NCBI GenBank assembly: GCA_947624175.1 | Contig: CANQJD010000002.1 | Location: 1,170 to 65,169, forward strand | Direction of reading: 5' to 3' | Source: an uncultured Bacilli bacterium | GTDB lineage: Bacteria; Bacillota_I; Bacilli_A; RF39; UBA660 | DNA: 64,000 nucleotides | Shown: positions 18,364 to 64,000 of the stretch, piece after piece | Position numbering within the stretch: position 1 is the first letter of the stretch | Layout: every line of letters begins with the position of its first letter | Program-made: the position numbers and the translations under genes | Notes under the pieces: generated by a model | Databases searched by the model: none | Told to the model about the DNA's origin: nothing | What the model saw: only the letters and a program-made list of their open reading frames with translations

Positions 18364-18508
18364 AACTTATTCCTCCTTTTTAATCTATTCACATTATTCT
18401 ATGGTAAAAATTAAAGAATGTGAGGGCAAAAAAGAGAAATTGTGTAAAAACGATTGTAATTTCTTAATTATTTTGTTATGATAATTATGTTGCAAGAAGG
18501 AGGATATA

Positions 18509-19491
18509 TGAAAAAATTATTAAAAATTAGTTTTACATTCATGATATTAATACTTGCAGTTGGATGTAAAAATAAAACGACTCTTAAGGAAGGAAGTGAT
18601 ACTTTAGTTTCATTTAAAGATTCTAGTTTAAATATTAAAACATCTGATTTATATGATGAACTTAAAGATAAATATGGAATTAGTATTTTAATTGATATGA
18701 TGGATAGAAAAATTTTAGATAAAGAGATTCCTGATTCAGATGAAATAAAAAGTTATGTTGATATTCAAGTTAATTCTTTAAAAAATTATTATAAAACGGA
18801 AAAAGAATTTATAGAATATATTAACAATTATGGTTATAAAGATGAAAATGAGTTAAGAGATTACTTTACTTTAAATTATAAAAGAAATCTTGCGGTTCAA
18901 GATTATATAGAAGGATTAATAACTGATAAAGATATTGAAAACTATTATAATCAAAAAATCATGGGAGATATTACAGGAAGTCATATTTTAATTGAAGTTA
19001 ATACAACAGATTCCATGACAGATGAAGAAAAGAGAACAACTAAAGAAGAAGCTAAAAAGAAAGCAGATGAAGCATTACAAAAACTTAAAGATGGAACTAG
19101 TTTTGAAGATGTTGCTAAGGAATACTCCGAAGATGCTGAAACCAAAGATGATGGTGGAAAAATGGGAACATTTAGTCCTACTAAACTAGATGATGTAACT
19201 CGTCAAGTTTATGAAAAGATTGAAGTATCTAAATATTCTGATGTCGTTGAAACTGAATATGGATATGAAATTTTCTATAAAGAAGCTGAAAAAGAAAAAC
19301 CAAAACTTGAAGAAGTTAAAACTTATATTATAGAAACCTTAAGAGATGAAAAATTAGCAGCTGATTCTAAACTTCAATATGAAGGATTAAAAGCTATAAG
19401 AGAAAAATATGGTTTTGAAATTAAAGATGAAGATTTAAACGTTTATTATGACAATACAATGAATAATTTAATGAAAAATGATGAGGAGTAA
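18509..19491 (+). CDS. prsA: Foldase lipoprotein PrsA (parvulin-type peptidyl-prolyl isomerase)
   Basis: Lipobox LAVGC after signal peptide (start taken at MKKLLK, RBS AAGGAGG). Parvulin domain GDITGSHILIEV...GKMGTFSP. Confidence 0.8.
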
Positions 19492-45383: not shown

Positions 45384-48017
45384 TTATTTTGCTTCTTTTT
45401 CTTTTAAAGCAGCTTGAGCAGCAGCAAGTCTTGCGATTGGTACTCTATAAGGTGAACATGATACATAAGTTAAACCAATGTTATGACAGAATTCAACCGT
45501 TGAAGGTTCTCCACCATGTTCTCCACAGATACCAAGTTTGATATTTGGACGAGTCTTACGACCTTTTTCAGATGCCATTTTTACAAGTTGTCCAACACCT
45601 TCTTGATCAAGTTTAGCAAATGGATCAAATTCATAAATCTTATTTTGATAATAACTATCTAAGAATTTACCAGCATCATCTCTTGAAAAACCAAAGGTCA
45701 TTTGAGTTAAATCATTCGTTCCAAATGAGAAGAATTCAGCTTCTTCAGCAATCTTATCAGCCATTAAAGCCGCTCTTGGAATTTCAATCATGGTACCAAT
45801 ATGATATTCCATATCAGAACCTTTTTCTTCCTTAACTTTTTCAGCTGTTTCAACAACGATATCTTTAACAAATTTTAATTCTTTAGCTTCTCCAACAAGT
45901 GGAATCATGATTTCAGGAGTTATCTTAAATCCTTCTTCTTCAGATACTTCAATAGCAGCTTCCATTAAAGCCCGAGTTTGCATTCTAGCAATTTCAGGAT
46001 AAGTAACTGCAAGTCTACATCCTCTATGACCCATCATTGGGTTAAATTCATGAAGTTCAGCACATTTTTCTTTTAAATGTTCAACTGATACACCCATATC
46101 TTTAGCAAGAGCTTTAATATCATCTTCTTCCGTAGGTAAGAATTCATGTAAAGGTGGGTCTAAATAACGAACTGTCATAGGTAGTCCATTTAAAGCCTTA
46201 TACATTGCTTTAAAGTCTCCCTTTTGGAATGGAATTAACTCATTTAAAGCTTCTTCTCTTGCTTCAGGAGTTTCAGATAAAATCATCTTTCTAATTTTTG
46301 GAATTCTATCTTCTTCAAAGAACATATGTTCTGTTCTACAAAGTCCGATTCCTTCGGCTCCAAGTTCAACAGCTTTTTTAGTATCTCTTGGATTATCAGC
46401 ATTCGTTCTAACTTGCAAACGTCTTGCTTCATCAGCCCATTCCATAATTCTTCCAAAGTTACCTGAAACAGATGCTTCAACCGTTTTAATATCTCCTTTA
46501 TAGATTTTTCCAGTTGTTCCATCTAATGAAATATAATCTCCTTCATGGAATGTTTCTCCACCTAAAGTAAATTCTTTTTTAGCTTCATTTATATGAATAT
46601 CTCCACATCCTGAAACACAGCAAGTTCCCATACCACGTGCAACAACAGCTGCATGAGAAGTCATTCCTCCACGAACAGTTAATACACCTTGGCTTGCAAC
46701 CATACCTTCAATATCTTCTGGAGTTGTTTCAAGACGAACAAGGATTACTCTTTCACCTTTTCCACCAACACCAGCTGCCTTAGCATCTTCAGCTGTAAAG
46801 TAAATTTTTCCAGCAGCTGCTCCAGGTGATGCAGGAAGTCCAGTTCCAACTACTTCTCCATTCTTTAAAGCTTCATTATCAAAAGTTGGATGTAATAATT
46901 GATCTAGACTCTTAGCTTCAATTCGAAGTAAAGCTTCTTCTTTCGTGATTTTTCCTTCATCTACTAAATCACAGGCAATTTTAATAGCAGCATGAGCTGT
47001 TCTTTTACCATTTCTCGTTTGTAAGAAATAAAGTTTTCCTTCTTGAATTGTAAACTCCATATCTTGCATATCTTTATAATGGTCTTCTAGCTTATTAGCA
47101 ATTTCAATAAAGTTTTGATAACATTCTGGTAAGTCTTCAGCAAGTTTTGTTATAGGTTGAGGAGTTCTAACTCCTGCAACAACATCCTCTCCTTGAGCAT
47201 TAATTAAGTATTCACCATAAATACCTTTTTCACCAGTTGATGGATTTCTTGTGAAAGCAACACCAGTACCTGATGTATCTCCCATATTTCCAAATACCAT
47301 TGATTGAACATTAACTGCTGTTCCCCAATCACCTGGAATATCATTCATTCTCCGGTAAACAATTGCTCTTGGATTATCCCATGAACGGAATACTGCTTTA
47401 ACAGCTCCCATTAATTGTTCTTTGGCATCTTGAGGGAATTCTTCTCCCATAGCATCTTTATAAACTTTCTTAAATCTTTTAACTAATTCTTTTAAATCCT
47501 CAACATCTAATTCAGTATCGTATTTAACACCTTTTTCATTTTTAACTTCATCAATTATCTTTTCAAAAGATGATTTTGGTACTTCCATAACAACATCTGA
47601 ATACATTTGAATAAATCTACGGTATGAATCATAAGCAAATCTTTCGTTATTAGTCTTTTTAGCAAAACCAACAACCGCTACATCATTTAAACCTAAGTTT
47701 AAAATTGTATCCATCATACCTGGCATAGAAGCTCTAGCACCACTTCTTACAGATACTAAAAGTGGATCTTCATTGTCTCCAAATTTCTTTCCTCGTTTTT
47801 CTTCAAGTTTTTTTAGGTAATCAAAAATTTGATCTTCAATTTCTTTACTAATTACCTTTCCATTTTCATAATAGTTTGTACATGCTTCAGTTGTAACTGT
47901 AAATCCTTCAGGAATTGGTAATCCTAAATTAGTCATTTCAGCTAAATTAGCACCTTTTCCACCTAAAAGATTCCGCATGTCTTTGTTTCCTTCTTCAAAG
48001 GCATACACATATTTCAT
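45384..48017 (-). CDS. ppdK: Pyruvate, phosphate dikinase
   Basis: 877 aa with PEP-utilising enzyme mobile-domain His (GGMTSHAAVVARG), N-terminal ATP-grasp and C-terminal PEP/pyruvate-binding TIM barrel. Confidence 0.95.
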   Translation of the reverse strand: MKYVYAFEEGNKDMRNLLGGKGANLAEMTNLGLPIPEGFTVTTEACTNYYENGKVISKEIEDQIFDYLKKLEEKRGKKFGDNEDPLLVSVRSGARASMPGMMDTILNLGLNDVAVVGFAKKTNNERFAYDSYRRFIQMYSDVVMEVPKSSFEKIIDEVKNEKGVKYDTELDVEDLKELVKRFKKVYKDAMGEEFPQDAKEQLMGAVKAVFRSWDNPRAIVYRRMNDIPGDWGTAVNVQSMVFGNMGDTSGTGVAFTRNPSTGEKGIYGEYLINAQGEDVVAGVRTPQPITKLAEDLPECYQNFIEIANKLEDHYKDMQDMEFTIQEGKLYFLQTRNGKRTAHAAIKIACDLVDEGKITKEEALLRIEAKSLDQLLHPTFDNEALKNGEVVGTGLPASPGAAAGKIYFTAEDAKAAGVGGKGERVILVRLETTPEDIEGMVASQGVLTVRGGMTSHAAVVARGMGTCCVSGCGDIHINEAKKEFTLGGETFHEGDYISLDGTTGKIYKGDIKTVEASVSGNFGRIMEWADEARRLQVRTNADNPRDTKKAVELGAEGIGLCRTEHMFFEEDRIPKIRKMILSETPEAREEALNELIPFQKGDFKAMYKALNGLPMTVRYLDPPLHEFLPTEEDDIKALAKDMGVSVEHLKEKCAELHEFNPMMGHRGCRLAVTYPEIARMQTRALMEAAIEVSEEEGFKITPEIMIPLVGEAKELKFVKDIVVETAEKVKEEKGSDMEYHIGTMIEIPRAALMADKIAEEAEFFSFGTNDLTQMTFGFSRDDAGKFLDSYYQNKIYEFDPFAKLDQEGVGQLVKMASEKGRKTRPNIKLGICGEHGGEPSTVEFCHNIGLTYVSCSPYRVPIARLAAAQAALKEKEAK

Positions 48018-48135
48018 ATAATCTCTATTCCTCCCAACTCATATATTATATTAAAAAAAAGTCATCGTTGCAACAACTTTTTTACTTACTTGACATTAAT
48101 AGACAAAAAAAGAAGTCCTAAGACCTCTAAATTTT

Positions 48136-48645
48136 CTATTCACCTGTATCCCAAAAATAATCGGCATATTTTTCACATTCACTTTTAGTAAGATTAACTT
48201 CATTACCATTTGCATCCCAGCATTTTCCTTTAACTGAACTATTATTTACACCATCAATTAAACTTCCACTAGTATTTCCTGACTTATCCCAACAAGCAAA
48301 GAAAGCTGTGAATGCTGTCGTTCCTTCATCAATTTTAACAATGCTATTAACAGTATTCATAATGATTTTTAAAAGTGGTACAATCAAGAAAATAATTAAT
48401 GCATAAATTAATCTTCTTATTGAATTCTTTTTAGCTTTACTAACTTCTTTTTCATCTCCATTAGTCATAGCTTTGAACATATCAATTGCACATAATATAA
48501 TAAGTACAGCAGGCACTCCAAATTGAATAATTGTAAATACAGCCTTAACAATTGATACAACAAGCATGATTAATGTATCCTCAGCACATAAATCATTAAT
48601 ATCTACTAAAGTTTGAACTAAATTCATTATAATTCCTCCCAACAC
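48136..48645 (-). CDS. Small two-TM membrane protein with conserved Cys motifs (paralog 1; 169 aa)
   Basis: Shares ...P.(V)LI.LC..D.FK... / K..V.........I...P (second helix) / CWD with the adjacent 109-aa ORF. Confidence 0.4.
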   Translation of the reverse strand: MLGGIIMNLVQTLVDINDLCAEDTLIMLVVSIVKAVFTIIQFGVPAVLIILCAIDMFKAMTNGDEKEVSKAKKNSIRRLIYALIIFLIVPLLKIIMNTVNSIVKIDEGTTAFTAFFACWDKSGNTSGSLIDGVNNSSVKGKCWDANGNEVNLTKSECEKYADYFWDTGE

Positions 48646-48704
48646 AAACTTCTATAACTTTATAATACTAAATTATTGAAAATAAATCAAGTCTTTTTCG
48701 TATT

Positions 48705-49034
48705 TTAGTTATTTTTTTTACTATTCTCGACATAATCCCAACATTCTTTCCACTCATCACTATAACCAAAAGGAATAATACTATTAGCAAGTCTAAAGAA
48801 CATTGGTATTAAAAATGGTAATAAATATATAATAATTGCATAAACAATTTTCATAACTACTTCTTTACGTAATTTCTTAATTTCATCTTCTTTTTTAGAT
48901 ACAATTATCTTAAATATATCAACTGTACATAAAACAATTAATAAAATTGGGATAATAAATCTAATTAAATCAAACAATGAAACAATTATACCAAAAAATA
49001 ATTGCATATCCGAATTACACATACTCCTCACCAC
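48705..49034 (-). CDS. Small two-TM membrane protein with conserved Cys motifs (paralog 2; 109 aa)
   Basis: FIIPILLIVLCTVDIFKII ... ECWDYV; paralog of 48136..48645. Confidence 0.4.
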   Translation of the reverse strand: MVRSMCNSDMQLFFGIIVSLFDLIRFIIPILLIVLCTVDIFKIIVSKKEDEIKKLRKEVVMKIVYAIIIYLLPFLIPMFFRLANSIIPFGYSDEWKECWDYVENSKKNN

Positions 49035-49083
49035 CTAGTTGCAAATTATAGCATATTTTATGCAAAAAATCAAGTAGTTTGTC

Positions 49084-49680
49084 TTAATTTGTCACGAAAT
49101 AGACTTCTTTATTCTTAAAGTATGCATAATTTATATTCTTAAGTTCTAAGTTCGCAGCATCTATTTTCTTATCTAACCATTCTAAACTTTTATTTAAACT
49201 AAATAAATTATCTTTAATTATTTTACCATCAATAATTATACTAATTGGATAATTACTAACACTATTCTTTTTAAAAATGATTAAATCATTTCCTTTTTTA
49301 ATACAATAATCAACTAAATTAGGATTTTTGATTCCTCTTTTTCTTAAATTATATAATAATCCTTCATAAGTATATCCTGATTCTATTAATTCCTTAAAAT
49401 TAATTATCCCTCTGTTTATAAATACTTTATCATCATTAACTTTTCTTACAATATCTTTTTTATATAAATAAATATATAAATAATAAACTAATATGACGAT
49501 TAAAGATAAAATAATTGTATAAAGAAGATTTAAACCACGATAAAGAGTAAAAAGAGATATATTAAATATAAATAATAAAGTAATTATTTCTAAAATTCCG
49601 ATTTCTTTTTTATTTAATACTGTATAAAAACTTAAGATAATAAATAAACTAATTAAAATTTGAATAATAAAAGAAAACAT
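49084..49680 (-). CDS. DUF421 (YetF-like) membrane protein
   Basis: Three N-terminal TMs and a C-terminal domain with ...YTYEGLLYNLRKRGIKNPNLVDYCI... resembling the YetF C-terminal domain. Confidence 0.5.
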   Translation of the reverse strand: MFSFIIQILISLFIILSFYTVLNKKEIGILEIITLLFIFNISLFTLYRGLNLLYTIILSLIVILVYYLYIYLYKKDIVRKVNDDKVFINRGIINFKELIESGYTYEGLLYNLRKRGIKNPNLVDYCIKKGNDLIIFKKNSVSNYPISIIIDGKIIKDNLFSLNKSLEWLDKKIDAANLELKNINYAYFKNKEVYFVTN

Positions 49681-49717
49681 AATATCACCATAGATATCAT
49701 GTTTTAAAAACTAATTT

Positions 49718-50203
49718 TTATTCACTTACTTCTAAATTTTTCTTAACTTTCTTATCTTCTTTTTTATCATTTAAGTAACCTTTAATCATTAACATAACAT
49801 TACTAAATGACAATAAGTAAAGCATTACTTTAAGAGGTGCAATTTGATCTGTAAAATAAGTAAAGTTAATATCATATTTATAACGATGCCACATAAGCAT
49901 ATTTTTATCAAGAATTGACCTATAACAGAAGACTGCAATTGTCATGATTACCATAAAAGATACTATATTATAGAATAAATTATTTCTTACTTCATCTTGC
50001 CTTAAGAAAGTATTAACTAGTAATAAGATTATTAATATTATATATGGTAAGATAACTCCTAAAAATTCAAAGAAATTAGCACCAAATGGTTCTTTTTCTA
50101 GTCTTTGAAACATCATCATAACAATATAAATAGTTGCAACTAACAAGAATGGTAATACTAAATTTTTAATATAATAAAACATTTTATTTAATATCTTTGT
50201 CAT
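49718..50203 (-). CDS. Hypothetical 4-TM membrane protein
   Basis: 161 aa, four predicted hydrophobic helices, Lys-rich tail. Overlaps the upstream gene by 1 nt. Confidence 0.4.
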   Translation of the reverse strand: MTKILNKMFYYIKNLVLPFLLVATIYIVMMMFQRLEKEPFGANFFEFLGVILPYIILIILLLVNTFLRQDEVRNNLFYNIVSFMVIMTIAVFCYRSILDKNMLMWHRYKYDINFTYFTDQIAPLKVMLYLLSFSNVMLMIKGYLNDKKEDKKVKKNLEVSE

Positions 50204-50871
50204 TAGTCATTACCTCCCCTGTTAATCATCTCTGATAAACCTAAGACGATATCAGCAAAATCATTATAAGATGAAGCAATAGCCTGATAATCAGAACTTA
50301 AATAGTCTCTAATTGTTGAAGAAGTAATCTTCGTGGTCATGAAATAACTACTATTATTTTGTAATTCATCAATTGCAAAATCAACATGGCTAGCAATTGA
50401 ATTAACACTACTTGTAACAAGAGGTGCTACATCTTCGAACTCTTTAGGTAATAATTCTGGATCGGTTAAATAACTTAATTGAACAGCCCAACAAATATTT
50501 AAAGCATTAGCTTGAAAACTTGTTCCTAAATTATAAACATCAAAAGAATTATATCTTTTATTAACTTCTATTTGAGATAACATTCCATCAGTATTTAAAA
50601 CCTGATTACAAGTTGTTAATTTATTATACATTGTTTTATAAGCTGAACTAGTACCAGTTTTCCTAGAAAAATCTGATAAGTTACTCTTTATTTTTCCAAG
50701 TTTTTCTCTATAAGCTGTATAATTAGTATCATTTTCAGAAATATATAAAACTTTAGAAACTTCACTACTATGATAAAAATTAATTAATAAATAGAAACTA
50801 CTAATTATCATAGCTAGTCCAAGTCCTGTATAAGCAAATATCTTTAAATACTCTTGAATAAATTTTTTCAT
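50203..50871 (-). CDS. Hypothetical signal-anchored protein
   Basis: 222 aa with an N-terminal hydrophobic segment. Abuts both flanking genes. Confidence 0.4.
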   Translation of the reverse strand: MKKFIQEYLKIFAYTGLGLAMIISSFYLLINFYHSSEVSKVLYISENDTNYTAYREKLGKIKSNLSDFSRKTGTSSAYKTMYNKLTTCNQVLNTDGMLSQIEVNKRYNSFDVYNLGTSFQANALNICWAVQLSYLTDPELLPKEFEDVAPLVTSSVNSIASHVDFAIDELQNNSSYFMTTKITSSTIRDYLSSDYQAIASSYNDFADIVLGLSEMINRGGND

Positions 50872-51426
50872 CTATTTCTCCTTATTCATAACTACTTTAT
50901 AATGATAATGTTTACCTTGCCAATCGGTAGTATCTGAGGCTATATAAATTCGAAGTTTATAAGTATTTGTTTTATTACCTCCAATACTTCTTGAATCTAA
51001 AATATTATCTTTTATATTTGATAATTTATCTTCTTTAATTACTTCATCATTCATGATTAATTGATATCTTAATTGACTTCTTTTTAATAAAGTTGCTTCT
51101 GTACAACCATCATTTATGGTATTAACAGGCACATCTTCTATATATAAAGTATAATTTCCTTTTTGTAAATTTGTATTTCGAACCTTGAAATTATAAGCGG
51201 CAACTTGTTCTAAGTTATCTCCTTCATGGTTATTAGCATCAGCATCTACAACATTATTCCCGTCATCCGTCATCACAATATCGCCACTTCGATTTGGGTC
51301 ATTCGTAGTACTACTTCCATAACTAGCACTGGCATTTAGGAAAAAGATATACCAAAAATAAGTCCCAAAGGTTAAAAATACAACTAATAATAATCCACCT
51401 ATAAATAGTAAAAATTTATTTTTCAT
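50872..51426 (-). CDS. Hypothetical secreted/signal-anchored protein (possible SipW substrate)
   Basis: MKNKFLLFIGGLLLVVFLTFGTYF signal-like N-terminus. Overlaps the sipW stop by 4 nt. Confidence 0.4.
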   Translation of the reverse strand: MKNKFLLFIGGLLLVVFLTFGTYFWYIFFLNASASYGSSTTNDPNRSGDIVMTDDGNNVVDADANNHEGDNLEQVAAYNFKVRNTNLQKGNYTLYIEDVPVNTINDGCTEATLLKRSQLRYQLIMNDEVIKEDKLSNIKDNILDSRSIGGNKTNTYKLRIYIASDTTDWQGKHYHYKVVMNKEK

Positions 51427-52034
51427 CTTACACCTCTTTTTAATCTTCTTTTTTGCTGCATAGTTTTAACAAGTTTTATTACATCAAAAGTTATAATTCC
51501 AACACAAGGAATAACAATTGCAATAATCCAACCATAAGCTTGGGATAAGAAATATTGAATATAACCTATCTTTGGTATTTTCATAATAACTTTTCCATAT
51601 ATTTGACTTAATTCAACTGGCATTTGATCAGCTACATTATTAGCATCTCCTTTAAAGATATATACTCTATTTCCATTTTCATCAACATCAATACCTATAA
51701 TTCTATGGGTTATTTTAATACCTAACCATCTTGGATCTTTCGATAAATAAGTACAAACATCTCCAATTTTAGGTTCATCAACTCTTTTTATAACAATAGC
51801 ATCTTGAACATGAATAATTGGTTCCATACTAGTACTTACTATAACATACGCTCCATATAAAGGAGGTTTCCAATTACCAGTATGAGAATTCTTTGTAACA
51901 TCTATATAATAGGCAGCAAATAATATACCTACTAATATTAAAACGACAATAACCGAGTTCATAAGAATAGATGATATAAAATTAAACCACCATTTAACTT
52001 TATCAAGAGTTGTATTTACTTGAGTACTTTTCAT
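51423..52034 (-). CDS. sipW: SipW-type (archaeal/ER-like) signal peptidase I
   Basis: N-terminal TM, VIVSTSMEP (Ser box), KRV...GD, THRIIGID and FKGDANN motifs typical of SipW-class S26B peptidases. Confidence 0.75.
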   Translation of the reverse strand: MKSTQVNTTLDKVKWWFNFISSILMNSVIVVLILVGILFAAYYIDVTKNSHTGNWKPPLYGAYVIVSTSMEPIIHVQDAIVIKRVDEPKIGDVCTYLSKDPRWLGIKITHRIIGIDVDENGNRVYIFKGDANNVADQMPVELSQIYGKVIMKIPKIGYIQYFLSQAYGWIIAIVIPCVGIITFDVIKLVKTMQQKRRLKRGVR

Positions 52035-52038
52035 ACTA

Positions 52039-52755
52039 TCACCTATCTACAAAGGCTGCATAAGTATTAACTTTAACTCCAAAGGTTTTGTTAGAAAAAC
52101 TTGCATCAGCAGAATTAACATCTTCAGATACCCACATCCGCATCACGAAATCAATTCTTCCTTTTTCTGCTTCTTCTTCACTTATCGTATCACTATAGAT
52201 GACAACCCCTTCAGCTTCATCATACTTACTCTTTTGATAATCAGTATATACTTTTACTTTACCATTATCTTTATATGAATAATCAACGCCTTTACCATTC
52301 TTTTCTAAATATATTTTAACATCCCCACTTGGTAAAGTATTGCCAGAATTAGGAACAGCTGTAAATTCATAATAAGCACCTGCTGTTTTATCACCAATTA
52401 TAAGTGAAAAAACAAATACTCTTCCTTCTCCTTCAAAACTCTTACCTTCAGCATCGGTTATTGGAAATTGATTAACTAAATAAATACCACTTGAATAAGG
52501 TCCTGTATTTTCTGTATAAGTAATAACATATTTTTCTTTATCATCATCTCCCGTTATCGTGGAAATTAATGAATTAATTGTTTCATTTTTATCTAAAAAG
52601 TTAATAGTTGAAAAAGATAATCCTAAAGCAAATAATACTCCAACCGTTGTAAACAAGAATAAAAGGAAAAATGGCATTCCATGTCTTCTTTCTTCTTCAT
52701 CTTCTTCTATATATTTATTATAATCTTCTTCGTAGTTATTATCTTTATCTTCCAT
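52039..52755 (-). CDS. Hypothetical exported protein with long acidic N-region (possible SipW substrate; TasA-like position)
   Basis: Acidic N-tail, TM/signal (MPFFLLFLFTTVGVLFALGLSFS), beta-rich extracytoplasmic domain; first gene of the sipW operon. Confidence 0.35.
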   Translation of the reverse strand: MEDKDNNYEEDYNKYIEEDEEERRHGMPFFLLFLFTTVGVLFALGLSFSTINFLDKNETINSLISTITGDDDKEKYVITYTENTGPYSSGIYLVNQFPITDAEGKSFEGEGRVFVFSLIIGDKTAGAYYEFTAVPNSGNTLPSGDVKIYLEKNGKGVDYSYKDNGKVKVYTDYQKSKYDEAEGVVIYSDTISEEEAEKGRIDFVMRMWVSEDVNSADASFSNKTFGVKVNTYAAFVDR

Positions 52756-52777
52756 AAATATACCTCCGTATAATAAA

Positions 52778-52806
52778 ATAATATCACAAAGATGTTAATT
52801 TGACAA
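52778..52806 (-). promoter_or_regulatory. Candidate sigma-A promoter of the sipW operon
   Basis: Minus strand TTGTCA - 17 nt - TATTAT, then GGAGG and the start at 52755. Confidence 0.45.
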
Positions 52807-52860: not shown

Positions 52861-52884
52861 CTAGTATGTAAATTAACATACTAG
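52861..52884 (-). terminator. Terminator after the DltD-like gene
   Basis: CTAGTATGTaaattaACATACTAG perfect 9-bp stem, followed on the minus strand by a U-rich stretch. Confidence 0.5.
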
Positions 52885-52888
52885 ATTA

Positions 52889-53935
52889 TTAATATCCCAT
52901 CTCTTTATATTCTCTTACTAACTCTTCAAAATTATCACCAGTTGTTTCTCTATAATCATGTTTAAATTTTTCGTAAGCCATATCCCAGGACTTATACTTA
53001 CTATCACCTCTATGATCTTCTAAATCATAATTTTCTTTTAAATACCTAGAAAAATATAAAGTATATTTTGTTGCACCATAGGTGTTTAAATGAGCAAAGT
53101 TATATAAATCAGTATCAAAATCTACTTGAAAATCATCTAAAGTATTAAAATTAATAACTTCAAAACCATTCTCTTTAATATATTTAACACCATAATTTAT
53201 TAAAGGAAGTTCAACTTCTCCAAAAACTCTTTTAGGTACTACAAAGATAACATTTAAGTTATTATCTTTAATATATTTAAATAAATCATTTAAAGTATTA
53301 ATCGTATCTCCATGAAGAACTTTTTCTTCATCAGTCCAAACATTAGGAGTCTGTTTTCTTTTTTGAGCAACATCTATATTAAATAAATATCCTTTATATA
53401 GCTCCATTCTATTTAAAAGATTAGCTCTTAAAGCATTTTTATCTTTCCAAAAATCATGATAAGTAAAAAAACTAAAATAATAATTAATATATTCACTTTT
53501 AGGAACACTGGTATAACTTAAAAGTTCATTTATACAATCGGTTCGATTTTGAGATTTCTTAAGAGCATCTGTTACTTTTCTAATTTGACCTTCTTCTATC
53601 ATTGAAAAATATTCTGTGATTCTCGCGATATCTATAACATAAACTTTCGGTTTTTGATATTTAAGACTTTCTTTAATTAAATATTTCGTTGCAGCTAAAG
53701 GAACAGCATCAGCTGATAACATTCCTGTTGTAAAACCATGCTCATTGTAAGCTAAAGTCGTATTAAAATGAGCATAAGCATTACTACCTCCAATATAAAT
53801 TACATCTAATGAATTCTTTGGTTCTTTATAAAACTCTGTAATTGGGTTTCTTTGAATTCGAAGAACTTTACTAACTATGATAAAGATTACTAAAAATATC
53901 CCTATAAATATTATAATTTTTCCTAACTTCTTCAT
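52889..53935 (-). CDS. DltD-like / SGNH-type partner protein of the MBOAT acyltransferase
   Basis: N-terminal TM anchor, extracytoplasmic domain with YIGGSNAYAHF. Gene order (MBOAT then this ORF, 3-nt gap) as in dltB-dltD/algI-algJ type pairs. Confidence 0.45.
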   Translation of the reverse strand: MKKLGKIIIFIGIFLVIFIIVSKVLRIQRNPITEFYKEPKNSLDVIYIGGSNAYAHFNTTLAYNEHGFTTGMLSADAVPLAATKYLIKESLKYQKPKVYVIDIARITEYFSMIEEGQIRKVTDALKKSQNRTDCINELLSYTSVPKSEYINYYFSFFTYHDFWKDKNALRANLLNRMELYKGYLFNIDVAQKRKQTPNVWTDEEKVLHGDTINTLNDLFKYIKDNNLNVIFVVPKRVFGEVELPLINYGVKYIKENGFEVINFNTLDDFQVDFDTDLYNFAHLNTYGATKYTLYFSRYLKENYDLEDHRGDSKYKSWDMAYEKFKHDYRETTGDNFEELVREYKEMGY

Positions 53936-53938
53936 AAC

Positions 53939-55495
53939 CTAAAAACCTCGATAAATAAACGTAGCTGGGTCATAACCAGGTCCATAACAACCAATTATCA
54001 TAATAGCAAAGATTAAAATATAATAAACTAACCATCTAATTACTATATTTCGTTTTAATATTTTATCTCTTATATCCCCTTTACGATTCAAAACTTCAAT
54101 AACTATTAAAGAAATAATAGCAAAGATAAAGACTAATAATTCAATTTTTCCACTATAAACATGAATATTAAAGAAAGGTGTTTTAGTTTTATGATTAACA
54201 AATATTCCTTTTATAATCTTAAGAGCTTCACTTACTCTTTCTGCTCTAAAGAAAATCATTGAGAAGGAAAACAATAAATAAGTTCTAATTCTTTGATAAA
54301 GTTTATAACCAAATGATTCCCGATTTATTTTTAATTTACTAGTTATTAATATTGCAACCGGCTCCAAATTATCTTCTAAGAACATAAACAAAAATTGTAA
54401 AAGACCTGACCCAATTATATAAGTATAAGCACCACCATGCCAAATTCCAATCATTGTCCACATGATAAGCATTGATAAATATAAAGGTACTTTTTTACCA
54501 ACTTTCTTCCCAAATTTATCTTTGCAAACCCTATTTAACTTTTGCATAAAATTAGATTTTAATAAAGGATAAAAGATATAATCTTTAAGCCAAGCACCTA
54601 ATGTTATATGCCATCTTCTCCAAAATTCGGTTATCGTTCTAGCACAAAACGGATTATCAAAGTTTTCTGGTAAATTAATACCCATAATCTCAGATATTCC
54701 CATGATTATATCAATAGAACCTGAAAAGTTAGTATATAATTGAATTGTAAATAATAAAGCAGCTATAAATATATAAATACCTGAAAATCCATTTAGATTA
54801 CCATAAACAGTATTAACAAAATTACCTAATCTTTCAGATATAACTAATACTTTAAATACCCCAATTAAAACTCGAAGTAATCCTCTTCTTGCCCTTTCAT
54901 AATTAAACTTATGAGAACCATATAAATCATCTTTAATATTTTCATATCTAATAAATGGTCCTGATGTTAAAATTGGAAAATAAGACATGAATAAAGCACA
55001 CTTAAATATATTTCTTTGAGCTTTAATACTACCTCTTTGAATATCAATTAAATAACTAATCATAATCAAGGAATAATAACTAATTCCAACTAAAGAATTT
55101 CTTTTAACTAATTCATAATTGGTATTAAATAAATGATTAATAGTTGTAATAAATAAATTAGAATATTTTAAATAAAGTAATAACCCAAGAATTATAACAA
55201 TTCCAATTATTAAATAAAAATTCTTTTTATGATTATCTTTATTTTTTTCTATTAATATTCCTATTATATAAGATGTAAATATTACAATTAAAGCTTCTAT
55301 AATCGTTAATATAGTAAAATTTTTATAAAATAAAAAGAATAAGCTAGATATAAGTAAAACTATCCATTGAAATTTCTTAGGTACAATAAAATAAATACCT
55401 AAAACAATTACACAAAATAATAAAAATACTAATGTTACTAAACTCATACTACCTTCACCATAAAAAATAATATCACTAAAACAAATATTTGCCAA
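53939..55495 (-). CDS. MBOAT-family membrane O-acyltransferase (DltB/AlgI-like)
   Basis: Polytopic, conserved His region FWRRWHITLGAWLKDYIFYPL characteristic of MBOAT. Confidence 0.8.
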   Translation of the reverse strand: MANICFSDIIFYGEGSMSLVTLVFLLFCVIVLGIYFIVPKKFQWIVLLISSLFFLFYKNFTILTIIEALIVIFTSYIIGILIEKNKDNHKKNFYLIIGIVIILGLLLYLKYSNLFITTINHLFNTNYELVKRNSLVGISYYSLIMISYLIDIQRGSIKAQRNIFKCALFMSYFPILTSGPFIRYENIKDDLYGSHKFNYERARRGLLRVLIGVFKVLVISERLGNFVNTVYGNLNGFSGIYIFIAALLFTIQLYTNFSGSIDIIMGISEIMGINLPENFDNPFCARTITEFWRRWHITLGAWLKDYIFYPLLKSNFMQKLNRVCKDKFGKKVGKKVPLYLSMLIMWTMIGIWHGGAYTYIIGSGLLQFLFMFLEDNLEPVAILITSKLKINRESFGYKLYQRIRTYLLFSFSMIFFRAERVSEALKIIKGIFVNHKTKTPFFNIHVYSGKIELLVFIFAIISLIVIEVLNRKGDIRDKILKRNIVIRWLVYYILIFAIMIIGCYGPGYDPATFIYRGF

Positions 55496-59506: not shown

Positions 59507-62500
59507 TTATCTTTCATAATAATAATTAATTATATTTATTCCTTTAACTACTTTAATAGTTATTTCTTTAGGAGTTATATAACCATCATACTTATTTAAT
59601 TCTCCTGTTATACTATCTCCTTCTTTACTATCTATTTCTTTACTATTAACTAAAGTATAATTAACTCCATCTTTATTCATCAAATAATAGTTTATAACTA
59701 CCTTCGTTTTAATATCACTAGCTTCTTCCTTCACATTATCTTTAGTTATCTCGTAATCTATAACTGTATTCCTTAAAGTATAATTAGGATTAACATCCTT
59801 CATAGTAGCAACGGTTGTATAATTTCCAACTTCTTTATTCTTTGTTGTTTCTAGTTCTATTTTCTCTCCATTTACTCCGATTGCTGTTGCTTTAGGTGCT
59901 ACTAATCCTCCAGTATATTTTACACTTGTACTTGAATAATTAACTTCTAATGTTTTCTTTTCGATTGTGCAACTTAATGTTTTAGTTGTACTTCCATCAT
60001 TAAAGAAATATCCATTTTTAGTTGTAGCCATTACTGTATAAGTTCCAGCATCAGTACCCTTATTATTACTATAAGTTACATTCTTTCCACCTGATACTAA
60101 TGTTTGTTCTTCTCCATTATAAATTAAATTATTACAACTTCCTAGACTTGCTGTTTTATTAGTACCTATATTCTCATCAACTATACCAGGTCCTTCATTA
60201 GATGGAGATGATGTACCTAAAGATACAGTATATGGACTATCTATTGTTCCACTTCCACCTGCTATTTTAACTTCAGATTTTAGATTAATTGATGGGCGAA
60301 CAGCATCATACATCTCATTAGGTTTTCTTCTCTCTAAATAGTACCCAACACCAGTTCTTATCGTGTATCCGGAATCGGCAGGTGTTATAAGAGACATACT
60401 ATAGAATGTTGAATTTCCTATTGTAACCGAAAACATTTCTCCTACTCTTGGTAATCCTACTTTCCCTGTCCAAGTTTTAGTTGTTTTTTCACAATTTTTT
60501 GTTGTTTCAGTTGTATTGCTTTCACTACATATTGAATTTTTATAACTTGCATTCTTTACTGCTCCCAAATAATACGTTCCATCCGTTATATAATTTTGAA
60601 GTTCAGTGGTTAACCAAGTATCATTCAAATATGTATTCCATTGTGAAAATACCCAACTTTCATTTGTCCTACTAGTACTAAATTGTTTTGTTAAGATGGA
60701 ACCATATTCATCCCTTACAAAATCTACACCTGTTAATTTTGTAGTTCCATTTTCTATTCCTACTATCCTATATATTTTATTATCTACTTTTACATATTCT
60801 CCACTTAATCTTGTATTTATTGAATCCCCCGGTATTCCTGTTGGTTTGTCAATCGTTATCGTATATGGATTACTTTTTGTTCCTTCACCACTTAATTTGA
60901 TATCAGATTTTAGATTAATTACTGGGCGAACACCATATGCACTCGATGAAGGCGAAGCGTTTGACAATTTATCACCACTAGTAACATTCCAAACCATAGA
61001 ACTACTATATGGAGTCATAAACCAACTATAATTATTTCCATTTTTTAAATAAGTTTCCTTAGAAGCAGATGAACCTGAAATATTTTTATAACTTTGATAA
61101 TATTCATAGGCATTTAATAACCCTACATTGCCTTGCACTATTGTTGCAGTTTTATCTGTTGGTGGTTTTGCTGGTATACTATTTCCATCTGGAGTTGCAT
61201 TCCAATCAGCATTTTGGACAATTATATTTTGATAATTATAAAGGGTATCTTTAAAATCTTCATTTAACCATTGATATATCCACGAATCTTTATATGTTGT
61301 ATTTTCACCCCAATATATTGCTGTTATAGCATCTTGCATTCTCATTTTCATTGTTCCATCTGGATTTATCGCGGTTATTCTCCATAATTTCCCTGAATAC
61401 CATACATAGTTAAAATCTATACATTCATCATTTCCTGAAAAATAGATTGTTCCATCTTCATCTTCTACTATTGGATTACAACTTTTGTCTTTGACTTTAT
61501 CTAATACTTTATCAACTGCAGTTGGTATTTTAGAAGTTACACTATAAGTTTGAGAAGTAGCACTATTATAATTAGTTGTATCTGTTGGATTAAAACCAAC
61601 TGTTATATTGGTTGTACCAGCACCTTTTCCAGTTATAGCTATAGTATTATCTGATACACTTGCTGTTGCTATTCCACTATTTTGTGATGTTGCCGTATAT
61701 GTTCCTGCTACATCATTATTATTGAATTTAGCACTTGCTGTAAATAATATTGTAGAACCTACAAGAACATTACCACTACTTGAAGATAAAGTTAAAGTTG
61801 GAGTTGCTTTAGCAATTGTATAAGTTTGAGTTGGATTTGATATTGTGTAGTTATCTTTATTTGCTCTTCCTCCACTTACTTCTGATACAGTTGCCGTTGA
61901 TGTTATATTAGTCCCGGCATTAGTTTGTTTTGTCGTTGAAATAGTTAAAGTTTCTCCACTTATTGCTCCGGATGCTACTGTTGCACTTGGCCCTTGATTA
62001 CTTCCATTATAAGTATAAGTTCCTACATTCCAAGTTAGAGTTACACTCTTTTTTCCTATACTACAGCTTAATGTCTTATTTGCTGCATTATCTGAAAATT
62101 TATGATTAGAGTCTGGAGTTGCTGTTATAGTATATGTTTTAGCATCTGTTCCTTTTGTTGTTGTATAATTTACTCCACTTACTGTATTTACGATTGTTTG
62201 TTCTGCTCCACTATAAGTTTTATTAGCACAACTTCCTGCTTCAACATCTGCTTTATTGATTGTTAAGGTTCCAGTTCCATAACTTATTTTATAGTTACTT
62301 GTTACATCTGTAGAACCATTTACTATCTTGGCTCCACTTGCACTTATCTTTCCACTGCTTGTTACATTTGTATCCGTTGTTGTTAAGGTTATTTCACTTA
62401 AACTATGTCCTGTTACTAAATTGCTTGCTGTTGCTTTGCTTACACTTTTATCTATACTTCCTCCATAGGTTATCGTTTGATTTACCGGAGTTATTGTTGT

Positions 62501-64000
62501 TTCTCTTTGAGTAATTGTAAAGTTATATGTTCCACTTGCTAATGTTAAACTATAATTATTTGCTTTAAATCCTTCTCCATCACTTAATGTTAGATTTCCT
62601 AGATTGACTGGATAGGTTCCGACATTTTCCCCTATTGTTCTTCCTAACTTTCCTGTAAATACTGGATTTTCTCCTGATATGGCTCCAGTGTTACTATATC
62701 CTATAGTTGGGTCAGTATCACCATATGTTTTAGATAAATTGCTATTTGGGGTTACTGTTATTTGTTTTTTATTAATTGTTAAGGTTCCATCAACATAACT
62801 TAAGTTATAGTTTGCTGTTACTTCTGTTTCCCCTGACATTATCTTGGCATTACTTGGAGTTATCTTTCCTCCTGGTACATCTTTAGTTGATGCTGTTAAA
62901 GTTATAGCTCCTAATGTATGATTAGTTACTAAATCTTTAGCTGTTGCTTGACTTACTGCATTTGTTATTCCGGTTCCATAGGTTACTGTTTGGTCATTTG
63001 CCGTTATACTTGCATTCTTTTTATTTATTTTACATGTTAAAGTCTTATTTCCTGTTGTATTATCACTCCAACGATATCCTTCTTGTAAAGTTTCAGTTAC
63101 TGAATAATTATCTTTTGCATCTGTTCCTGCATTACTTCCTAATGTTATTCCTATACCTCCTGATGCTAAGTTTTGACTCGTTCCATTATAAGTTGGATTT
63201 GCACATGTTGCTTCACTTGCTACTTTATATCCTGTTACTTTATAAGTTACACTATTGGATTTATTGTAATTCTTGGTATCTGTTGGATTAAAGGTTACTA
63301 CTACATCTACACTTCCATTAGATACTCCTGTGATTGTTATTTCATTTCCACTTACTTTGGTTGTTACGATTCCTTCTTTACTGGTTGTTACTGTGTATGT
63401 TCCTGCTGTATTTGGAGTTATTGTTCCTGTTATCGTTACACTTTTTCCTTCTAATACTTCTCCCGTTTCACTACTTAAAGTTAACTTAGGAGTTGCTTTA
63501 ATTATTTCAAAATTAACTGGTGTTTCAGAGAATTTTAAATTATAGTTACTTGCTTTAAATGGTAATTTATCTTCTATATCTAACGTTCCTTTATTTATTA
63601 GATATGTCCCAACATCATTTCCTTCGGCTCTTCCTAATTTTCCTGTAAATCCTGGTTCTTCTAAATTACCTGTATAAGTATAGGTTAAATCTTTATCATC
63701 AGTTCCATATACTTTACTTTGATTTGAGTCTGGGGTTACTATTAAATCTTTCTTTCCTATACTACAATTGATTGTGATATCTTCTTGTGATTTATCACTC
63801 CATCTATAGTTTTCTTTTAAGATTGCCTTTATTTGATAACTTCCTGCATCTTTCTGCTTATAATTATCAAGTGTATATCCTTCTTTATTATTTTCTACTA
63901 AATCTTGACTTTCTCCATTATATGTCCTTGCTATACATATTGCTTCCGTTGGTTTTTCTATTAAAGTATATCTTTCTGGATTTATATTAACTGTATAATA
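59507..64000 (-). CDS. Second giant MBG/Ig-repeat surface adhesin paralog (N-terminus beyond window end), with tandem DUF6273-like domains and MucBP-like C-terminus
   Basis: The track ORF 59507..62839 starts at an internal Met. I translated the same frame up to position 64000 without meeting a stop. Its N-terminal half is about 90% identical in protein to the corresponding part of 12201..17774. The C-terminal part differs, with two domains each ending ...(G/A)VRP(V/S)INLKS... and a final ...KVVINYYLMNKDGVNYTL... segment. Confidence 0.8.
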   Translation of the reverse strand, partial: YYTVNINPERYTLIEKPTEAICIARTYNGESQDLVENNKEGYTLDNYKQKDAGSYQIKAILKENYRWSDKSQEDITINCSIGKKDLIVTPDSNQSKVYGTDDKDLTYTYTGNLEEPGFTGKLGRAEGNDVGTYLINKGTLDIEDKLPFKASNYNLKFSETPVNFEIIKATPKLTLSSETGEVLEGKSVTITGTITPNTAGTYTVTTSKEGIVTTKVSGNEITITGVSNGSVDVVVTFNPTDTKNYNKSNSVTYKVTGYKVASEATCANPTYNGTSQNLASGGIGITLGSNAGTDAKDNYSVTETLQEGYRWSDNTTGNKTLTCKINKKNASITANDQTVTYGTGITNAVSQATAKDLVTNHTLGAITLTASTKDVPGGKITPSNAKIMSGETEVTANYNLSYVDGTLTINKKQITVTPNSNLSKTYGDTDPTIGYSNTGAISGENPVFTGKLGRTIGENVGTYPVNLGNLTLSDGEGFKANNYSLTLASGTYNFTITQRETTITPVNQTITYGGSIDKSVSKATASNLVTGHSLSEITLTTTDTNVTSSGKISASGAKIVNGSTDVTSNYKISYGTGTLTINKADVEAGSCANKTYSGAEQTIVNTVSGVNYTTTKGTDAKTYTITATPDSNHKFSDNAANKTLSCSIGKKSVTLTWNVGTYTYNGSNQGPSATVASGAISGETLTISTTKQTNAGTNITSTATVSEVSGGRANKDNYTISNPTQTYTIAKATPTLTLSSSSGNVLVGSTILFTASAKFNNNDVAGTYTATSQNSGIATASVSDNTIAITGKGAGTTNITVGFNPTDTTNYNSATSQTYSVTSKIPTAVDKVLDKVKDKSCNPIVEDEDGTIYFSGNDECIDFNYVWYSGKLWRITAINPDGTMKMRMQDAITAIYWGENTTYKDSWIYQWLNEDFKDTLYNYQNIIVQNADWNATPDGNSIPAKPPTDKTATIVQGNVGLLNAYEYYQSYKNISGSSASKETYLKNGNNYSWFMTPYSSSMVWNVTSGDKLSNASPSSSAYGVRPVINLKSDIKLSGEGTKSNPYTITIDKPTGIPGDSINTRLSGEYVKVDNKIYRIVGIENGTTKLTGVDFVRDEYGSILTKQFSTSRTNESWVFSQWNTYLNDTWLTTELQNYITDGTYYLGAVKNASYKNSICSESNTTETTKNCEKTTKTWTGKVGLPRVGEMFSVTIGNSTFYSMSLITPADSGYTIRTGVGYYLERRKPNEMYDAVRPSINLKSEVKIAGGSGTIDSPYTVSLGTSSPSNEGPGIVDENIGTNKTASLGSCNNLIYNGEEQTLVSGGKNVTYSNNKGTDAGTYTVMATTKNGYFFNDGSTTKTLSCTIEKKTLEVNYSSTSVKYTGGLVAPKATAIGVNGEKIELETTKNKEVGNYTTVATMKDVNPNYTLRNTVIDYEITKDNVKEEASDIKTKVVINYYLMNKDGVNYTLVNSKEIDSKEGDSITGELNKYDGYITPKEITIKVVKGINIINYYYER

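Follow-up and report, generated by a model that had tools for sequence, protein, structure and literature searches.

The window analyzed here is a 64,000-nucleotide (nt) stretch of DNA from an uncultured Bacilli bacterium (GTDB lineage RF39; UBA660; GenBank assembly GCA_947624175.1, contig CANQJD010000002.1, positions 1,170 to 65,169), and it carries on its minus strand a five-gene operon that is reasonably likely to specify a strongly diverged extracellular fibre or matrix system of the tapA-sipW-tasA or sipW-tasA-calY type. In order of transcription the genes encode P1 (238 amino acids (aa); 52039-52755), which occupies the position of tapA, a SipW-like signal peptidase I of the S26B family (203 aa; 51423-52034), P3 (184 aa; 50872-51426), which occupies the position of tasA, the single-pass membrane protein P4 (222 aa; 50203-50871), and the membrane protein P5 (161 aa; 49718-50203). 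Hydropathy analysis places one N-terminal hydrophobic segment in each of P1, P3 and P4, and about four such segments in P5. A first-pass annotation of the region had described eight minus-strand open reading frames (ORFs) with overlapping junctions, a promoter, an S26B peptidase, a DUF421 protein and a paralogous pair of small cysteine-containing proteins, and all of these are present. Its proposal of a SipW-centred unit with linked exported substrates is borne out by a gene order that is conserved while the flanks differ. Its further suggestion, of novel substrates without kinship to TasA or CalY, is not supported, as P1 and P3 are remote members of the TasA/camelysin superfamily, recognisable only by way of intermediate sequences.

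Organization and conservation of the operon

The five genes are tightly packed, with a 4-nt gap between the P1 and peptidase genes, a 4-nt overlap between the latter and P3, abutting P3 and P4 reading frames, and a 1-nt overlap between P4 and P5. A terminator-like hairpin on the minus strand (52861-52884), lying 3' of an unrelated 348-aa gene upstream of P1, is the 5' boundary of the operon. Between this hairpin and P1 is a sigma-70-type promoter with an extended -10 element (TTGTCA-17-TGaTATTAT; 52778-52806, minus strand), which agrees with the consensus at 10 of 12 positions, includes the TG of the extended -10, and is followed downstream by GGAGG and then the P1 start codon. Promoter-like matches are frequent in window DNA, which is 25% GC (52 found against 40 expected); the P1 promoter and its GGAGG ribosome-binding site are kept nearly base for base in most of 17 compared loci whose proteins are just ~55-65% identical, and this near identity among far more diverged proteins argues that the promoter is a real, selected feature. 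Set beside the established consensus patterns of the sigma factors, it looks sigma-A-like and does not show a sporulation-sigma pattern.

The exact proteins of the window occur on metagenome or metagenome-assembled genome (MAG) contigs only. When each GTDB species was represented by a single genome, 21 loci were found; every one is in a MAG of gut origin (rabbit, ruminant, roe deer or Hadza human), and most of these MAGs carry the label uncultured Bacilli. Searches with the window proteins by tblastn recovered the order P1-SipW-P3-P4-P5-DUF421 in every locus of the closer clade that extends far enough, and none of the cassette loci examined, from ~20 species-level MAGs and further metagenome contigs, departs from the order of the first five genes, which is the outcome of the comparison of sipW neighbourhoods that the first-pass annotation had called for. 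The surroundings change from locus to locus, with an MBOAT gene and the 348-aa gene, TED/SpaA proteins or Big_2 surface proteins upstream, and the cysteine-containing pair with ppdK, spoVA genes or a nucleoside phosphorylase downstream. Two far more divergent lineages (loci L030/L031 and L036) retain the five-gene core without DUF421; in L030/L031 the identity to the window proteins is 34% for P1, 60% for the peptidase, 39% for P3, 26% for P4 and 33% for P5. The five core genes travel together, and because their order is kept while the flanks change, including in the divergent lineages, we take the five-gene core to be the functional unit. The closest GTDB relative of the window cassette (L009, CAYTGK010000028.1; 74-84% protein identity) lies in a MAG labelled 'uncultured Muribaculaceae' (Bacteroidota); since its gene content is typical of Bacilli, that label is probably a binning or labelling error.

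The gene that follows P5 after a spacing of 37 nt encodes a 198-aa DUF421/YetF-family membrane protein (49084-49680, minus strand) with three hydrophobic segments within residues 1-70 and a match to PF04239 over residues 84-186 (57.5 bits against a cut-off of 23.6). The first-pass annotation had counted it in the system, and it is instead a clade-specific 3' neighbour, found in the closer clade and absent from the two divergent cassettes. We found no paper in the literature that links SipW with DUF421. In one locus (L005, 6289-8074) the cassette is followed by spoVAC-spoVAD-spoVAEB, and ksgA-yabG-veg lie nearby in L005 and in L036 (3756-5612). Given such neighbours in some genomes, the carriers of the cassette are likely spore-formers.

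A dedicated SipW-like peptidase

The peptidase matches the NCBIfam model TIGR02228 (archaeal/endoplasmic reticulum-type signal peptidase I) at 88.8 bits against a cut-off of 51.85, and gives only 17 bits with Pfam Peptidase_S26, as expected for the S26B branch. It falls below the Bacillus SipW equivalog model NF046067 (71.6 bits against a cut-off of 190), and by this NCBI criterion its sequence classes it as SipW-like and not as a SipW orthologue. It has two hydrophobic segments, one N-terminal and one C-terminal. S69 (in SMEP), H110 (in ITHRI, the THR box) and D130 (in KGDxN) are invariant in 25 cassette peptidases; from what is established for S26B enzymes we take these three to be the catalytic residues, with histidine and not lysine at the second position. 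By sequence the protein is an intact S26B enzyme, and at 58-84% identity across cassettes it is far more conserved than its partner proteins. A word-indexed search for its homologues, of which the best 120 of 262 matches were considered, contained no outgroups among those listed.

A separate signal peptidase I of the LepB/SipS type (S26A), found by BLASTP, is encoded at 1608-2144 on the minus strand (TIGR02227, 156.9 bits against a cut-off of 47), such that the same genome has both S26A and S26B signal peptidases. This disposes of the possibility, raised in the first-pass annotation, that sipW is the sole general signal peptidase of the organism, and shows the SipW-like enzyme to be a second, specialised signal peptidase linked to its neighbours. 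In B. subtilis and C. perfringens SipW is likewise dispensable for general secretion and is needed for TasA/TapA or BsaA (PMC7395162, PMC9674648).

P1 and P3 as hidden relatives of TasA and camelysin

Neither P1 nor P3 gave a direct usable match in searches of Pfam, NCBIfam and PDB sequences, and word-indexed homologue searches returned only close relatives (at least 50% identity). The relationship emerged when a hidden Markov model (HMM) built from the P3 alignment was run exhaustively against 1.84 billion representatives, which yielded 829 clusters (defined at 50% identity) at E<=1e-3 and 155 at E<=1e-10, with matches that run full length, beyond the signal peptide. Members of this wider family have in common a basic N-region, then a hydrophobic stretch that closes with (G)(S/T)YAxF, the motif N-x4-G-x-L-x-L-x-L-D and a conserved beta domain; the N-termini of TasA and camelysin follow such a pattern. 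PF12389 (Peptidase_M73) is matched by 9 of 67 wider-family proteins, and its gathering cut-off of 22.5 is reached by four of them (P0379, 27.1; a 422-aa protein of L036, 26.3; P0337, 23.0; a 441-aa protein of L035, 22.6). The matches of these intermediates reach profile positions 108-119 of 196, far past the signal peptide; P0379, for instance, is found by the P3 profile at E 1.4e-14 and matches PF12389 over residues 16-121. One wider-family member matches TIGR04088, the model of the SipW-dependent-type signal (4e-4). A tblastn search of P0379 against plasmids gave no match.

Profile-profile comparison by hhalign joins the P3 alignment to the wider family at 100% (E 7.5e-47) and the P1 alignment at 98.2% (E 3.5e-14, P1 residues 37-230). 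The P1 orthologue of L036, which aligns with the P1 profile at 97.6%, keeps the canonical motif, SLSFAVF..NTLTTGTL. Sequences of TasA and CalY aligned with the wider family over the first ~75 residues at 70% and 89%, respectively, which we treat as a lead only. On the strength of the intermediates that reach PF12389 and of the profile-profile comparisons, P1 and P3 are classed by sequence as paralogues that belong to the TasA/camelysin superfamily but have diverged strongly, and not as members of PF12389 as that model stands. P1 had no match in NCBIfam, including TIGR04087, the TapA model (YqxM_for_SipW), and its sequence affinities make it a TasA paralogue in the tapA position, not a TapA homologue. 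Two other assignments were discarded. A match of P3 to the N-terminus of an archaeal 'flagellin' (8fk7, E 0.59) was rejected as similarity between hydrophobic helices, and a type IV pilin reading was dropped, there being no G/E5-type prepilin motif in the proteins and no prepilin peptidase or ATPase in the cassette.

P1 is 500-740 aa long in three species (L026 3593-5419, L027 4800-7022, L028 1254-2798), where ~1.1-1.4 kb of extra, beta-rich insert with no Pfam match sits between the N-terminal signal/strand region and the conserved C-terminal beta domain. The wider-family HMM also finds a third TasA-like paralogue directly upstream of P1 in four loci (L022 7265-7816, L024 2266-2820, L027 1789-2379, L016 6062-7675), of 183-196 aa in all but L016, where it has 537 aa.

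Predicted structures and cleavage sites

AlphaFold2 confidently models both proteins as beta-sandwiches, for P1 over residues 76-234 (predicted local distance difference test (pLDDT) above 85 for the beta domain, with block means of 81-96 over residues 91-210) and for P3 with a mean pLDDT of 80. When these models, which included the N-terminal helix, were compared with the PDB by Foldseek, the best matches were generic jelly-rolls (BcsB, CBM35/51 and the PA14 domain of GH3; E ~5e-4 to 3e-3), and the weak matches include the donor-strand filaments AbpA (7ueg), the Saci_0406 thread (7pnb), CfaB and CanA. TasA itself is not among the top 50 Foldseek matches of the 238- and 184-aa proteins. The structural evidence is compatible with a TasA-like identity without being diagnostic of it, and the Foldseek results are not counted here as support for TasA.

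The long acidic N-region noted earlier in P1 is real, with 26 residues preceding a hydrophobic segment that ends in S47-F48-S49, invariant in 27 sequences. The hhalign alignment pairs this S-F-S with the canonical S-Y-A, putting a small residue at -1, and signal cleavage in P1 is a plausible prediction. P3 begins with MKNK, a hydrophobic segment and GTY(A/F)WY, followed by the beta-sandwich. Its T-Y-A likewise aligns with the canonical S-Y-A, 25 of 33 orthologues have a small residue (Ala, Ser, Thr or Cys) aligned with -1, and 8-10 residues further on comes a conserved A-S-(G/A/S), such that cleavage is predicted as likely in most P3 orthologues.

In P4 one N-terminal membrane segment, closed by SFYL, precedes a region without strong composition bias, and two cysteines (C88 and C127) are invariant. 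Its N-terminus resembles the SipW-type signal region weakly (60%, E 8.5e-5); the equivalent of the cleavage site is S-F-Y, with a large residue at the -1 equivalent in all P4 sequences, and P4 is probably an uncleaved anchor. P4 had no match in Pfam or the PDB and P5 no consistent Pfam match, with nothing usable for either from direct Pfam, NCBIfam and PDB-sequence searches. Each cassette locus has a single homologue of either protein, and the DNA analysed contains no others.

A proposed mechanism and its alternatives

In the fibre or matrix system we envisage, P1 and P3 would be inserted through Sec and cut by the dedicated peptidase after the small-residue motif that ends the hydrophobic segment, namely S-F-S in P1 and, in most P3 orthologues, T-Y-A or the A-S-G/A site 8-10 residues later. 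Cleavage would free an N-terminal beta-strand, permitting the jelly-roll subunits to polymerise or dock by donor-strand exchange in the manner of TasA. P3 would supply most of the subunits, with P1 in a minor, nucleating or anchoring role, P4 and P5 would serve as a platform in the membrane for holding, assembling or anchoring the product, and the same peptidase would probably mature other proteins with a TasA-like module, such as the 1857-aa adhesin (12201-17774) described below. The literature offers precedents. SipW is required for the export and polymerisation of TasA/TapA and of BsaA (PMC9674648, PMC7395162), TasA polymerises via the strand exposed directly after its cleavage site (PMC9674648), and a nucleating role has been described for TapA (PMC10151520).

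A close parallel is the tapA-sipW-tasA operon of B. subtilis, which is also a compact, co-transcribed unit with an S26B gene between two exported beta-sandwich genes bearing a SipW-type N-terminus (putative in P1 and P3), the downstream one belonging to the TasA/camelysin superfamily (PMC9674648, PMC9245690). It differs in that here P1 is a TasA paralogue and no TapA match was found, P1 and P3 lie below the PF12389 and TIGR04088 thresholds, the peptidase scores well short of the SipW equivalog cut-off (71.6 against 190 bits), and P4 and P5 are additional, with no Bacillus counterpart. The sipW-bsaABCRSD operon of C. perfringens, an anaerobic spore-former, similarly combines a SipW-dependent polymerising matrix protein with putative secreted accessory proteins (PMC7395162); there, however, sipW comes first and the operon includes the two-component system bsaRS, neither of which is seen in the cassette. 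Beyond the Bacillota, the ABP operon of Pyrobaculum encodes a TasA-like jelly-roll subunit and a second beta-rich exported protein, together with four-transmembrane and single N-terminal transmembrane proteins that parallel P5 and P4 by topology (PMC9245690). Its subunit AbpA (7ueg) is a weak Foldseek match to both the P1 and P3 models (TM-score ~0.3), and the archaeal operon has no dedicated peptidase. The sipW-tasA...calY locus of B. cereus resembles the cassette in having one SipW, two TasA/camelysin paralogues and no known TapA. It differs in that its paralogues are clear PF12389 members, the gene order is another, P4 and P5 are not known from it, and it includes SinI/SinR, where the cassette has no regulator.

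A number of observations weigh against assigning the cassette to this class. P1 and P3 match neither PF12389 nor TIGR04088 even at E<=1, their link to TasA is transitive through intermediate sequences, and the PF12389 matches of those intermediates are marginal (22.6-27.1 bits) and mostly confined to the N-terminal half. The P1 and P3 alignments, when compared directly by hhalign, do not match significantly, and the TasA structures (5OF1/8AUR) are not in the top 50 Foldseek matches, with TM-scores <=0.40. The acidic N-region of P1, of 26 residues, is atypical, the residue aligned with -1 is Phe in the window P3 and large in 8 of the 33 orthologues, and the hydrophobic segments are long enough to serve as permanent membrane anchors. 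Finally, cleavage and fibre assembly are predicted from sequence, and all carriers are uncultured.

Alternatively, the proteins might form a membrane-anchored envelope complex and no fibre, with P1, P3 and P4 keeping their N-terminal segments as type II anchors and displaying at the cell surface beta-sandwich or other ectodomains that might bind wall or host polysaccharide, and the peptidase-like protein acting on a subset of them or as a scaffold. We consider this unlikely. The long hydrophobic segments, the large residue at the -1 equivalent in the window P3 and in all P4 sequences, and the conservation of the integral membrane proteins P4 and P5 with the set are in its favour, as is the prominence of carbohydrate-binding jelly-rolls (BcsB, CBM35/51, PA14 of GH3) among the best Foldseek matches, although those matches are weak and generic. 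The invariant catalytic Ser, His and Asp, on the other hand, argue for an active protease, the S-F-S of P1 does not vary, 25 of 33 P3 sequences have a small residue at the aligned position, and the wider family keeps the canonical TasA-type cleavage and donor-strand motif.

It is less probable still that, as in the alternative named in the first-pass annotation, the cassette has a spore-related role, building or modifying together with DUF421 a spore-surface or spore-membrane structure. TasA was originally described as spore-associated (PMC9674648), all loci of the closer clade that extend far enough have a DUF421/YetF-family gene after the cassette, and sporulation-related genes are near the cassette in some genomes (spoVAC/AD/AEB next in L005, ksgA-yabG-veg near in L005 and L036). 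Yet the flanking genes vary by locus, DUF421 is missing from the divergent cassettes, and the conserved promoter fits a sigma-A extended -10 and not a sporulation-sigma pattern. Linkage without functional meaning, that is, a general secretion peptidase lying among unrelated membrane proteins, might be entertained on the ground that no partner protein has a direct database annotation, but it is hardly credible when the gene order is kept with partners at 26-39% identity, the junctions overlap, a LepB-type peptidase is present separately, and both genes flanking sipW belong to a family whose known members are SipW substrates.

A TasA-like module on large surface proteins

The wider-family HMM also matches a 1857-aa surface protein of the window (12201-17774, minus strand; residues 6-186, E 5e-16), which is a candidate substrate of the SipW-like peptidase. 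Its first ~190 residues form a TasA-like module whose N-terminus is of the SipW type (GISYGLFKY..NQELIAGDIYM), followed by MBG_2, Ig-like and Laminin_G_3 domains; inspection of its C-terminus showed no LPXTG motif or C-terminal anchor. The architecture is not peculiar to this protein, as ~23 of the top 150 wider-family representatives are multi-domain, some with LRR_5 (BspA-type) repeats. LPXTG was absent from all six fusion proteins scanned for it. Visual inspection of 14 fusion-protein C-termini, those of the same six and of eight more, revealed no hydrophobic tail.

One could imagine, and we offer this tentatively as a doubtful extension, that the gut Firmicutes considered here use the TasA-like module at large as a docking domain at the N-terminus, by which big adhesins that begin with it, such as the 1857-aa protein and the LRR_5 fusions, would be matured by the cassette peptidase and docked through donor-strand exchange. 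Their partner in docking would be either fibres of P1/P3 or a membrane platform made of P4/P5. If true, this would amount to sortase-independent display of adhesins, with a logic like that of the tip adhesins of chaperone-usher pili.

Many multi-domain proteins with the module end in a recurring C-terminal motif, approximately Y/W...G(A/V/S/M)R(A/P)V(V/I/L), as in P0331, P0377, P0389, P0414 and P0431 and in the products of L033 8001-10448, L035 896-2221 and L016 6062-7675. Divergent to the 1857-aa adhesin gene and beside it is a gene for a PrsA-like PPIC-type peptidyl-prolyl isomerase (18478-19491, plus strand), and a rotamase also occurs near a TasA-module/LRR protein in L033. Another MBG_2 protein of the window (1110 aa; 59507-62839) carries a DUF6273 domain.

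Neighbouring genes

Downstream of DUF421 lie two small paralogous proteins, here called Cys109 (48705-49034) and Cys169 (48136-48645), which are encoded on the minus strand as a separate bicistronic unit and are 29% identical (E 1e-18), each with two hydrophobic segments; Cys169 has in addition a cysteine-containing tail. Their paralogy was recognised in the first-pass annotation, whereas the lengths given there, 169 and 109 aa, are probably too great, since the orthologues of L008 start at positions that correspond to internal Met residues (M7 in Cys169, giving ~163 aa, and M5 in Cys109, giving ~105 aa). In an alignment of the family five residues do not vary (C20, F42, P45, D55 and C118). 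The proteins have two membrane segments, and most relatives also carry a Cys-rich tail, which in some members contains 8-10 cysteines. The pair had been included in the SipW system, from which we now separate it: it adjoins the cassette only in the window strain and the near-identical L008, other genomes have single homologues ~3 kb upstream with unrelated genes between, and the pair has its own promoter-like site (49073-49045) and a terminator, a hairpin-like sequence (48111-48128, minus strand) between Cys169 and ppdK (45384-48017, minus strand).

For the earlier hint of a conjugative pilin there are sub-threshold matches only. Models of pilin-like proteins of the Gram-positive type IV secretion system remain below their cut-offs for the pair (PF18895, 17.7-17.9 against 26.6 bits; NF045849, 20.5 against 40 bits), and a match of this kind appears in just three of nine family members, mixed with competing, spurious seven-transmembrane matches. 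No conjugation genes were noted near the pair, in a window most of whose ORFs are without annotation. A conjugative-element reading of P5 together with the pair was rejected on the same two counts, the lack of an above-threshold match and of noted conjugation genes. One family member (L018 4007-5149) is a fusion with a peptidoglycan-hydrolase domain of the CHAP/NlpC_P60 type (E 1.9e-4 and 1.6e-3), which it has in place of the 8-10-cysteine tail of others. Cys169 is ~64% identical between the window and L008 (8622-9110), where the neighbouring proteins are 94-100% identical; the differences are mainly in the C-terminal Cys-containing tail, and their distribution in the sequence suggests strain-level hypervariability.

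Upstream of the cassette (52889-55495, minus strand) are a DltB-like MBOAT protein, with a match to PF03062 and a TIGR04091 score of 138 bits that is below the 375-bit cut-off, and then the 348-aa protein, which has a single transmembrane segment and no family match. The two may be an O-acyltransferase pair. They were excluded from the system, being separated from it by the terminator and not conserved beside the cassette.

Implications

Fibres of the TasA/SipW type are the main model of the biofilm matrix in Gram-positive bacteria, and recent work connects them with filaments of archaea. The cassette is a variant of this known kind of matrix or fibre system and not a new kind; its interest lies in the conserved membrane partners P4 and P5, the size of the family and the adhesin fusions. 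On the reading favoured here, a TasA/SipW-type system would extend into uncultured Bacilli of herbivore and human guts, where it has been hidden from standard annotation: of the family models that the first-pass annotation had proposed as a check, DUF421 was confirmed, while Peptidase_M73 has no direct match in P1 or P3. The work also defines a large unannotated family of 829 clusters that share a TasA-type N-terminus and brings to light multi-domain adhesins with an N-terminal TasA-like module. P4 and P5 are candidate assembly or anchoring factors, for a step that is unclear even in Bacillus. Should either their role in assembly or the docking of adhesins prove true, the cassette would provide a testable model for how fibres of the TasA type are anchored and decorated.

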